A stretch of 64,000 nucleotides of DNA from Escherichia phage MirsaeidiM_Esher1. The notes below the pieces were generated by a model. The model made no database searches. It was not told the origin of the DNA and saw only the letters and a list, made by a program, of their open reading frames with translations. The DNA is taken from the sequence record PQ438048.1; one strand, given 5' to 3'. Both the position numbers and the translations under genes were made by a program. This document shows positions 6,359-7,594 of this stretch, piece after piece (within the stretch, counting starts at the first letter, position 1; every line of letters starts with the position of its first letter).

Positions 6359-6790
6359 ATGCGTATGACAATCGATCTGAATGCAAAAGTTAAAGCTGCT
6401 GGTGCTCTGGGTGCTGGTGTTATTAAACACAAACAAGCGTTGGCATTTGCCATCCCACATATGATTGTTGAGGATCATCCTGAAGAGTTTGCTGTAAAAG
6501 TTGTTGAGAACAATGTTTCTGTTATTGAACATATCCCAACTGGACGTTCTTACCGTGTTGTTTCTTCTAAAGGTTTCCGTTTCGATGTAAGCCCTTCTTT
6601 CACAAAAGGTGCTGGTCGTAGTAAAGTGGGTATTCTTTCTTACAAATATTATATCGATAAAGTTGCAGATGGTGTTGCATTCTGTCGTGTAAGTGAAGGT
6701 AAAGTAGATATCATCTTTAAAAATACTAAAAACATGGTTATTTCTGATGATGGTAAAGTTGACCTCACTATTGAGTTCGCTAACAACTAA
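6359..6790 (+). CDS. hypothetical protein (probably highly expressed early protein)
   Basis: Own TTGACA-N17-TATACT promoter and AGGAG RBS; no recognizable motif. Confidence 0.6.
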   Translation: MRMTIDLNAKVKAAGALGAGVIKHKQALAFAIPHMIVEDHPEEFAVKVVENNVSVIEHIPTGRSYRVVSSKGFRFDVSPSFTKGAGRSKVGILSYKYYIDKVADGVAFCRVSEGKVDIIFKNTKNMVISDDGKVDLTIEFANN

Positions 6791-6799
6791 GGAGGACTA

Positions 6800-7594
6800 T
6801 TGAGCAAGTTGAACACACTTGATCAATATTACACTAACCCCGCTTATGCGGGGTTCTTATGTGATAAGATCAAAGAAATTTTTGGAGAGGAAGCTAACTA
6901 CGTAGAACCATCTGCGGGAGAAGGAGCTTTCTCTTCTTGTTTTAAAAACATAACTTCTTTTGATATTGACCCTAAGTTTGAAGATTGTATTGAGGCAGAT
7001 TTTTTAGCTCAATCTGTTGAGTCTGTTGGTAGTGTAACTGCTTTTGTCGGTAATCCTCCATTTGGAAAAAATGCTAGTCTTGCCATTAAATTCTTTAACC
7101 ATTGTGCTGAAATGCTGGATAACGAAGGTGGTATTTGTTTTATCTTGCCTCGCACATTTCAAAAAATCTTTTTTGCACACAAGCTAAATCCCCATATGCA
7201 TCTTCTTTACGAAGAAGAATGTCCAAAAGGATCTTTTATTCTTCATGGAGAACCTTGGGATGTTCCTTGTGTATTCCAGGTATGGATTAAACGCAACGAG
7301 AAGCGTTCTCCCGTTGTTTTAGGAGAGAATCGACTATTCGTATTAGGTAACAGTAAAGACTACGATATAGCCGTTAGGAGAGCGGGAGCAAGTGCAGGTA
7401 AAGTGTTATCAGAAGAAGATTCTTTATCTGAAGCATCTACCTATTTTTTAAAAGCCTTGACTTCTGATCTTAAAACGCGTATCATTGAGGCTTACCCGTT
7501 ACTTAAAGCTGAAGCTAGTAAAACTGCGGGAGTAAGAAGTTTAAGTTTAAAAGAACTTCAGTGGGTTCTGGAGAACATTAGAAAGGAGGAATAG
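6800..7594 (+). CDS. DNA N6-adenine methyltransferase
   Basis: SAM-binding motif EPSAGEGAF and catalytic NPPF tetrapeptide; TTG start after AGGAGG. Confidence 0.7.
   Translation: MSKLNTLDQYYTNPAYAGFLCDKIKEIFGEEANYVEPSAGEGAFSSCFKNITSFDIDPKFEDCIEADFLAQSVESVGSVTAFVGNPPFGKNASLAIKFFNHCAEMLDNEGGICFILPRTFQKIFFAHKLNPHMHLLYEEECPKGSFILHGEPWDVPCVFQVWIKRNEKRSPVVLGENRLFVLGNSKDYDIAVRRAGASAGKVLSEEDSLSEASTYFLKALTSDLKTRIIEAYPLLKAEASKTAGVRSLSLKELQWVLENIRKEE

Follow-up and report, generated by a model that had tools for sequence, protein, structure and literature searches.

A small gene of predicted restriction-endonuclease-like fold and its adenine methyltransferase neighbour as a candidate GTAC-directed module of Escherichia phage MirsaeidiM_Esher1 and related phages

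The replication operon of Escherichia phage MirsaeidiM_Esher1 contains, between a primase/helicase gene and a family-A DNA polymerase gene, a small open reading frame (ORF) specifying a basic protein of 143 amino acids (aa; pI 9.2), here named ORF143, which is followed by the gene of a predicted adenine methyltransferase. The question raised by this locus is whether these two genes act together and, if so, on which DNA sequence and against which DNA. The analysis was performed on a 64,000 nucleotide (nt) stretch of the phage genome (sequence record PQ438048.1, one strand, 5' to 3'; “the window” in what follows), for which an initial annotation had described the methyltransferase as being without a partner restriction enzyme, and had regarded the pair as a candidate anti-restriction or host-takeover unit. 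We find that the two genes very probably constitute a GTAC-directed functional unit, and on balance we favour the reading that they represent a Type IIP-like restriction-modification module in a virulent phage, in which ORF143, as judged from its structural model, is most likely a remote and previously unannotated relative of the small RsaI-type restriction endonucleases.

Both genes were confirmed in the sequence, as were the motifs EPSAGEGAF and NPPF that had been attributed to the methyltransferase: ORF143 occupies positions 6359 to 6790 (ATG to TAA) and the methyltransferase gene, specifying 264 aa, positions 6800 to 7594 (TTG to TAG), both on the plus strand. The methyltransferase displays motif X (DQYYT, aa 8-12), motif I (EPSAGEGAF, aa 36-44) and motif IV (NPPF, aa 85-88), in the order that is typical of the gamma class, and these motifs (motif I in the form EPSAGxGxF) are invariant in an alignment of 30 family members. 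The REBASE-derived PADLOC model MTase_II matches the protein over almost its full length (E = 3.6e-36), which argues for a Type II-like enzyme; on its sequence, the second gene is a Type II-like gamma-class N6-adenine DNA methyltransferase gene, in agreement with the initial assignment. The family is large (2427 hits), and some of its members carry PF26055, a model absent from the Pfam copy searched. In that copy the window protein was matched by Eco57I (PF07669) alone, at a sub-threshold 15.6 bits versus a cutoff of 25.3, and no NCBIfam model matched it. Its matches among solved structures are weak (Ta1320, HsdM and M.TaqI), the best by sequence being the METTL5-like Ta1320 (E = 0.0045).

The identity of the first gene was less apparent. 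Searches with ORF143 in Pfam, NCBIfam, PADLOC and PDB sequences returned no match, and PHROGs assigns the protein only to phrog_9938, a family of unknown function. To this extent the initial description of ORF143 as having no recognizable motif stood; however, an exhaustive profile search of 1.84 billion protein representatives retrieved approximately 20 relatives of 120-150 aa, and across this family a loop, PSxTKGxGR, as well as a proline, Pro33, are invariant. A 690-aa repeat protein with seven profile matches (P0134) was judged to be a spurious member.

When the alignment was enlarged by the distant representatives from the profile search, AlphaFold produced a confident model of ORF143, with a predicted local distance difference test (pLDDT) score of 93.1 for the 21-sequence alignment as compared to only 46 for six sequences. 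The core of this model is composed, in order, of a helix, three antiparallel strands, a helix and a strand, corresponding to the expected alpha-beta-beta-beta-alpha-beta core. Comparison of the model with the PDB by means of Foldseek gave no significant match (all E > 0.1), the weak matches with the highest template modelling (TM) scores being of the PD-(D/E)XK type, namely Hjc resolvases (TM 0.41-0.44), EndA, HinP1I, DpnI and the SPARDA nuclease. Among viral models (BFVD), an rV5-type homologue was retrieved with a TM of 0.77, and the first named match outside the family was a Synechococcus phage Syn19 protein of 171 aa, the annotation of which reads “R.RsaI endonuclease” (E = 2.2e-3, probability 1.00, TM 0.66/0.57). 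This Syn19 protein matches the PADLOC REase_II model PDLC03550 (E = 1.6e-11), and hhalign pairs its segment FAPSAMVGSGRK with the stretch FDVSPSFTKGAGRSK, which encompasses the invariant loop of the ORF143 family. The RsaI family has itself been classed as PD-(D/E)XK, at the lowest reliability level (PMC2441816). The model thus supports the assignment of ORF143 to the restriction-endonuclease-like fold class, as a predicted similarity of fold which falls short of proven homology.

RsaI cuts GTAC. From the R.RsaI-annotated fold match, GTAC was therefore predicted as the relevant sequence, after which its occurrences were counted and compared to a Markov expectation. In the window GTAC was observed 67 times versus 209 expected, and it has the lowest observed/expected ratio of all 256 tetramers, as is also the case in two loci from other lineages that carry the small gene (L007 and L010). 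Other loci, in which both genes are present, gave observed/expected counts of 9/38, 14/64, 15/43, 18/55 and 33/51, and the whole genome of the Vequintavirus Bas51, which also carries both genes, gave 258/441. Nine short contigs bearing the family (L041-L049), six of which have the methyltransferase adjacent while the other three end too soon, contain 4 GTAC sites versus 43 expected. The carrier genome hence avoids GTAC, as expected of the recognition site of a Type II restriction-modification system. Phage phi92, which infects E. coli and belongs to the same subfamily but carries neither of the two gene families, has a near-normal content (181 versus 221 in 50 kb of its genome), which argues against a general host-driven bias. 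The fold, the R.RsaI-annotated match and the depletion of GTAC make ORF143 the best candidate for a restriction partner, and the earlier statement that the methyltransferase lacks such a partner is therefore probably wrong.

Side observations on Syn19 and phi92 may be recorded at this point. In Syn19 (L015-L017; genes at L017:36007-37307), as well as in ACG-2014j, the RsaI-like endonuclease gene overlaps a PF01555 methyltransferase gene, and GTAC is approximately 2-fold depleted in Syn19 (234 observed versus 497 expected over 150 kb); judged from sequence, functional restriction-modification systems directed at GTAC may be present in T4-like cyanophages as well. In phi92 (L028, corresponding to phi92 70001-120000; genes 23018-24137), a beta-class (DPPY) methyltransferase gene, gp155, overlaps that of a 143-aa hypothetical protein, gp154, and the most depleted tetramer is CATG (77 observed versus 183 expected), so that this pair may be another unrecognised restriction-modification-like pair with a different site. 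Neither gp154/gp155 nor gp160, at the equivalent genome position, is homologous to either of the two families, and they were rejected as counterparts.

The association of the two genes is not confined to the window. The small gene adjoins or overlaps a gene of this methyltransferase family in six phage lineages, several of which have the pair outside any replication module. In Phapecoctavirus the small gene comes first and is followed by the methyltransferase gene, in Vequintavirus the methyltransferase gene comes first and overlaps the small gene by 38 nt, and they lie side by side or overlap in the marine Tara contigs L005 and L006 and the JGI contig L004, in the IMG/VR contigs L019-L021 and in the P0030 lineage (L044-L049). 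Restriction and modification genes usually show this pattern, in which a widespread methyltransferase is accompanied by a small partner that evolves fast.

Two lineages nearer to Phapecoctavirus, P0005 and P0004 (small protein 58% and 50% identical), keep the small gene and its promoter between the primase/helicase and DNA polymerase genes, and no methyltransferase was detected in the DNA recovered from them, of up to 20 kb. In this DNA GTAC is absent: 0 sites were observed versus 89 expected in 20.4 kb of the P0005 lineage, and 0 versus 26 in 9.1 kb of the P0004 lineage. Synonymous-codon shuffles of seven genes of the P0005 lineage produced 25.6 +/- 4.1 GTAC sites (minimum 16) versus 0 observed, and the region of the window which is homologous to the P0005 DNA contains 14 sites, so that even with the depletion seen there a count of zero in P0005 would hardly be expected (Poisson P = 8e-7). 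Scans of IMG/VR and JGI metagenomes yielded no further relatives without the methyltransferase. Small unrelated ORFs (112, 116 and 123-130 aa; L007:8475-8813, L010:7583-7933 and L011:6552-7312) flank the ORF143 homologue in the lineages in which no methyltransferase was detected, that of 112 aa occupying the exact slot of the methyltransferase in Phapecoctavirus.

These distributions bear on two explanations other than the restriction-modification module. One is that ORF143 serves the methyltransferase as a subunit which the enzyme requires for specificity or activation, in the manner of Trm112 and the NPPF-type enzymes, an idea to which the small size of the methyltransferase, its match to Ta1320 and the tight coupling of both genes lend themselves. 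Such a subunit is very improbable: ORF143 persists with its own promoter in the two lineages in which no methyltransferase was detected, the GTAC absence from their DNA would be left unexplained, and methyltransferase homologues number >2000 as opposed to ~20 representatives of the small protein, so the methyltransferase does not need ORF143 as a partner. The related idea of an RNA methyltransferase or Trm112-like activator, which originates from the Ta1320 match, was rejected on account of the strong Type II methyltransferase match, the GTAC DNA methylation observed in a related phage (described below) and the same persistence of ORF143.

The other explanation is that the methyltransferase is an orphan counter-defence enzyme, directed against host enzymes whose sites contain GTAC (RsaI-, KpnI-, ScaI- or BsrGI-like), with avoidance of GTAC being driven by the host and with ORF143 being an unrelated, abundant early accessory protein for replication or DNA binding. 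Orphan methyltransferases are common in phages, one record labels the gene “DarB-like anti-restriction”, ORF143 stays between the primase/helicase and the DNA polymerase where no methyltransferase is seen, and its tie to RsaI-like proteins at the sequence level is weak. Yet this explanation, which we consider improbable, would leave unaccounted for the linkage in six lineages, several of them outside replication modules, the near-normal GTAC content of phi92, and the restriction-endonuclease fold matches, the best named one of which is annotated for exactly GTAC. An exceptional sensitivity of Vequintavirinae and their relatives to the restriction-modification systems employed has been reported, for a panel that comprised rV5-like and phi92-like phages and no Phapecoctavirus, and whose named Type II enzymes, EcoRI and EcoRV, do not target GTAC (PMC8594841). 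This sensitivity argues against general anti-restriction and has no bearing on GTAC. Of the two roles proposed in the initial annotation, general anti-restriction is therefore disfavoured, while host takeover is plausible and the notion of a single unit is borne out by the six-lineage linkage.

Several further neighbours and relatives were inspected. In bacteria, the ORFs adjacent to methyltransferase homologues (Poseidonibacter L023; L025; L026) are unrelated to ORF143, and these neighbours were rejected as counterparts; GTAC is not depleted in Poseidonibacter L023, which has no bearing on specificity. In Synechococcus phage S-CAM7 and Prochlorococcus phage P-SSM2 (L013:2920-3935 and L014:2992-3952), the methyltransferase family occurs as two overlapping genes in permuted order, both annotated as hypothetical, the first specifying GNPPYG and the C-terminal domain and the second (~133 aa) specifying motif X (EVFTP) and motif I (DNSAGSGNF). 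The 133-aa neighbour was rejected as a relative of ORF143, as it represents the N-terminal half of this split, circularly permuted methyltransferase. A 196-aa ORF with NPPF at window positions 1026-1616, located in an upstream glycosyltransferase-rich block, has no Pfam match and is probably not a methyltransferase. Approximately 20 MG0656xx records named as Campylobacter jejuni phages (A135, A12a, C14, B15 and others) contain both genes in Vequintavirus- or Phapecoctavirus-type versions, and appear to represent E. coli phages that were mislabelled or present as contaminants.

If GTAC is the sequence on which the pair acts, adenine methylation would be expected at this sequence. Adenine methylation in virion DNA, which the initial annotation had anticipated, is indeed present in published nanopore data from Bas51 (phage WalterGehring, rV5-like, locus tags bas51_), in which the orthologous pair consists of the overlapping genes bas51_0199 (the ORF143 homologue) and bas51_0200, the product of the latter being 54% identical to the window methyltransferase. 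In a retron study, native nanopore sequencing of wild type Bas51 resulted in N6-methyladenine (m6A) calls by motif of 1405 for GATC, 509 for GTAC and 576 for other sequences, the corresponding numbers for a T83P methyltransferase mutant being 35, 511 and 349 (PMC12548924). The Bas51 genome contains 703 GATC and 258 GTAC sites, representing 1406 and 516 adenines, respectively; 509-511 calls versus 516 adenines therefore mean that essentially every GTAC adenine (~99%) is methylated. The mutated GATC enzyme (D69, D79, T83) is the 177-aa bas51_0176 and not bas51_0200, and GTAC methylation is thus independent of the GATC enzyme. E. coli K-12 is not known to methylate GTAC, and it is therefore a phage enzyme that must generate m6A at this sequence. 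The obvious candidate for this activity is bas51_0200, and for the methyltransferase of the window we consider the formation of GTm6AC to be probable. GTAC methylation of Bas51 had been measured and credited to no gene, and our reading, if true, would assign the enzyme.

According to the favoured reading, the methyltransferase would place m6A on GTAC, by which the phage DNA is marked as self, while ORF143 would recognise unmethylated GTAC and most likely cleave it. ORF143 would be the first of the two to be transcribed, its promoter being strong, early and of the host type, and this order would be safe as the entering genome would already have been methylated in the previous cycle; its action would therefore be directed at the unmethylated chromosome of the host and at any co-infecting DNA, with host shut-off, nucleotide salvage and competitor exclusion as possible outcomes. 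Incomplete methylation of replicating DNA would select against GTAC, thereby producing the 2-3-fold depletion in methyltransferase-bearing phages, and total loss of GTAC would render the methyltransferase dispensable, such relatives keeping the endonuclease-type gene alone.

A number of observations weigh against this reading, and several of them concern the relationship to RsaI and the catalytic competence of ORF143. The alignment by hhalign of the ORF143 family with the RsaI-like protein is weak, with an E of 0.002 and a probability of 13-14%, and covers the C-terminal half only. The “R.RsaI” label of the Syn19 protein derives from the annotation of its depositors and from the PADLOC REase_II match; when authentic R.RsaI was sought for comparison, a plasmid search found none and a genome scan gave a single metagenome-assembled genome. 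None of the PADLOC REase models matches ORF143 or any of the 21 family members. Within these 21 sequences there is no invariant acidic residue (E38 is present in 15 of them, and position 50 is acidic, E or D, in 16), the position equivalent to ExK reads RxK in the family, with SxR in its Phapecoctavirus members, and D, H or N occurs at position 58. The alignment therefore does not support a canonical PD-(D/E)XK metal site, and an active canonical enzyme is not claimed. Our search of the literature on these phages found no report of nuclease activity, host DNA degradation, RsaI or KpnI digests, transcriptomics, or virion proteomics covering ORF143.

Other points on the same side concern genome content and expression. 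The P0005 and P0004 lineages are known from partial contigs of up to 20 kb, and a methyltransferase gene or GTAC sites may lie elsewhere in their genomes. Depletion in the window is uneven, with 3 GTAC sites in the first 12.8 kb (the replication/early block) versus 33 between 12.8 and 30 kb; the homologous replication region is itself very GTAC-poor, so that the contrast with P0005 and P0004 is real but smaller than the raw expectation. Bas51 encodes a third, putative adenine methyltransferase, bas51_0070 (441 aa, Mod-like, PF01555; L039:14456-15781), which is a possible alternative source of its GTAC methylation and has no homologue in the window. Finally, ORF143 ranks third among the 73 ORFs of the window in its fraction of E. 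coli-preferred codons, calculated from a hand-listed set of optimal codons (GGT for 10 of 11 Gly, CGT for 6 of 6 Arg), a position which supports the initial description of the gene as strongly signalled; the four ORFs comparable to it are, by position and the annotation of a related record, probably capsid-region genes and SSB. Such codon usage suggests a very abundant protein, which would suit a stoichiometric DNA binder more than an enzyme. With regard to Bas51 it may be added that this phage also encodes a Dcm-like enzyme, and that methylated adenines outside GATC and GTAC decrease in number in the GATC-methylase mutant, as given above.

The same features bring forward a further explanation, namely that ORF143 descends from a restriction endonuclease but has lost catalytic activity, and acts as an abundant, methylation-sensitive binder of GTAC that either coats the unmethylated host chromosome or serves as a regulator or origin factor at a cluster of GTAC sites in the phage genome, with the methyltransferase exempting or tuning phage DNA. 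The missing invariant acid, the arginine found in Phapecoctavirus in place of the usual catalytic lysine, the variable position 58, the codon usage typical of the most abundant phage proteins and the basic nature of ORF143 are all in line with such a binder, as is the presence of 10 of the 67 GTAC sites of the window in one cluster at 55748-55941, with a smaller one in Bas51, and the fold and GTAC evidence fit binding as well as they fit cleavage. A specific form of this idea, in which the fold has been exapted and does not cut, would have GTAC methylation read as self, resulting in sequence-specific, methylation-gated shut-off of the host without cleavage, and would allow GTAC-free lineages to dispense with the methyltransferase. 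However, the total loss of GTAC from the P0005 DNA suggests that each site is lethal in its cost, which a double-strand break explains more easily than binding does, and GTAC-free DNA leaves a regulator no self site at which to act, yet gene and promoter are kept. Variant active sites are, furthermore, well known among PD-(D/E)XK enzymes, as exemplified by the SxK plus distal Glu arrangement of Cfr10I and NgoMIV and by ExQ in BglII. We therefore hold the inactive binder to be unlikely, though it deserves to be taken seriously, and its exapted shut-off form to be slightly less likely still. The proposition that ORF143 is an active nuclease would seem evenly balanced.

The GTAC cluster itself is a 194 bp segment located in an AT-rich divergent intergenic region, a leftward gene ending at 55717 and rightward genes starting at 56200, and it is interspersed with GATC palindromes. 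Its conservation within Phapecoctavirus is 96-100%; the start of one record falls there, and two records annotate a short repeat_region. The cluster of Bas51 (136910-137149), which likewise starts with ATCTAGTAC, lies beside operator-like inverted repeats. The segment at 55748-55941 may function as an origin, or else in regulation that is sensitive to methylation.

With respect to the arrangement and expression signals of the locus, the ORF143-methyltransferase pair is preceded by the primase/helicase gene (4488-6266) and followed by the family-A DNA polymerase gene (7594-10191, GTG start). The segment 6200-7700 is 100% identical to that of Escherichia phage Mt1B1_P17 and 98.9-99.7% identical to that of the other listed Phapecoctavirus genomes (phAPEC8, ESCO5 and others). 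In every related record examined ORF143 is labelled “hypothetical protein”, and the methyltransferase gene is labelled “putative DNA N6-adenine methyltransferase”, “DarB-like anti-restriction” or hypothetical.

Directly 3' of the primase/helicase stop codon, at ~6265-6285 on the plus strand, a short hairpin (AAGGGC-UUCG-GCCCUU, followed by UUAUU) is likely to be an intrinsic terminator which insulates the module. The initial annotation had placed ORF143 right after a terminator: the hairpin is present and a related record carries a terminator annotation under this stretch, but its fold energy is modest (-10.1 kcal/mol, z = -1.5) and a terminator consensus scan of the window did not call it. 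A sigma-70-type promoter, TTGACA-N17-TATACT, follows at 6297-6325 (plus strand) within the 92-nt intergenic gap. Its description as the best promoter in the window was accurate in that it is present and conserved, but its score of 11/12 consensus positions is shared, as the top score, with seven other sites in the 64 kb, and promoter-like matches in the window occur at chance level (51 found versus 50.4 expected from shuffles). The phAPEC8 record annotates a host-dependent promoter at the equivalent position, and sigma-70-like promoters also precede the homologous small gene in four other lineages (L004, L005, L007 and L010). The promoter and terminator signals are credible because they are conserved, the promoter being further set apart by the intergenic gap, and it is presumably read early by the host RNA polymerase.

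The strong ribosome-binding site claimed for ORF143 is there: a Shine-Dalgarno sequence, GAGGAG, is located at 6345-6350, 8 nt upstream of its ATG. A second one, AGGAGG, at 6790-6795 overlaps the ORF143 stop codon and ends 4 nt before the TTG of the methyltransferase (both are on the plus strand). The Bas51 orthologue of the methyltransferase apparently also uses TTG, and at window positions 7592-7596 (TAGTG) the methyltransferase stop codon TAG shares one base with the GTG start of the DNA polymerase. This overlap and the TTG start suggest, as far as can be read from sequence, that translation is coupled and that the methyltransferase is made in low amounts relative to ORF143.

Neither restriction-modification systems nor their use by viruses as weapons are new. 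New here are the recognition of a restriction-type partner gene in two coliphage groups that are very common, a small and novel sequence family with a link to GTAC, the gene order in a virulent phage by which the restriction gene comes first, behind an early promoter, and lineages which apparently keep the restriction-type gene alone in GTAC-free DNA. Few E. coli phages are isolated as often as those of the rV5-like and phAPEC8-like groups, which are also therapy candidates. If the favoured reading is true, these phages would possess a complete GTAC restriction-modification system, which would constitute a bacterial-virus counterpart of the attack on host DNA by chloroviruses and would explain the strong avoidance of GTAC in these genomes, and a restriction-type gene standing alone in DNA from which its target has been eliminated would represent an unusual state. 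The very small (~140 aa) GTAC-specific proteins would be possible reagents. There would also be a bearing on phage-phage competition in cocktails, on transduction safety if host DNA is shredded, and on engineering, where adding GTAC sites or deleting the methyltransferase could kill the phage.

In comparison with known systems, the pair resembles the Type IIP systems directed against GTAC (RsaI and its isoschizomers CviQI, HpyAXII and PabI), which likewise consist of adjacent genes for a small restriction-type protein and a methyltransferase, and likewise leave a genomic GTAC signature. The RsaI family has been placed in the PD-(D/E)XK class, being the class predicted for ORF143, whereas R.PabI and R.HpyAXII adopt an unrelated fold, the half-pipe. 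M.HpyAXII, M.PabI and M.CviQI generate m6A at GTAC (PMC2588503), as is seen for the GTAC adenines of Bas51. In contrast, M.RsaI generates N4-methylcytosine and the partner methyltransferase in Syn19 is of the beta class (PF01555), while the window methyltransferase is predicted to be a gamma-class, m6A-forming enzyme. Unlike its Syn19 relative, ORF143 does not match a REase model, nor does it have a conserved D...ExK motif, and the carrier is here a virulent phage rather than a bacterium.

Orphan phage adenine methyltransferases, such as T4 Dam, bas51_0176 and those with P1 DarB-type annotations, likewise modify the genome of their own phage. They differ from the present case, in which there is a conserved partner gene with a restriction-endonuclease-like fold and in which the inferred site is self-avoided, an avoidance that is unexpected for a purely protective orphan enzyme with complete methylation.

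The chloroviruses (PBCV-1 with CviAI and CviAII, and NY-2A with CviQI) provide a precedent for a virus-encoded restriction enzyme with a cognate methyltransferase, a methylated viral genome and offensive use. Their hosts are algae rather than a bacterium, and their enzymes are packaged in the virion and degrade host DNA within minutes, while expression here would be from an early host-type promoter, and the likeness is one of logic alone. We know of no chlorovirus counterpart of a lone restriction-type gene in GTAC-free DNA. A similar logic applies to phage T4, the early nucleases of which, endonucleases II and IV, destroy unmarked host DNA while its own DNA contains hydroxymethylcytosine. T4, however, relies on genome-wide base replacement and on nucleases preferring cytosine-containing DNA, whereas in the phages described here the distinction would be based on site-specific methylation, or on absence of the site, together with the proposed Type II-like nuclease.

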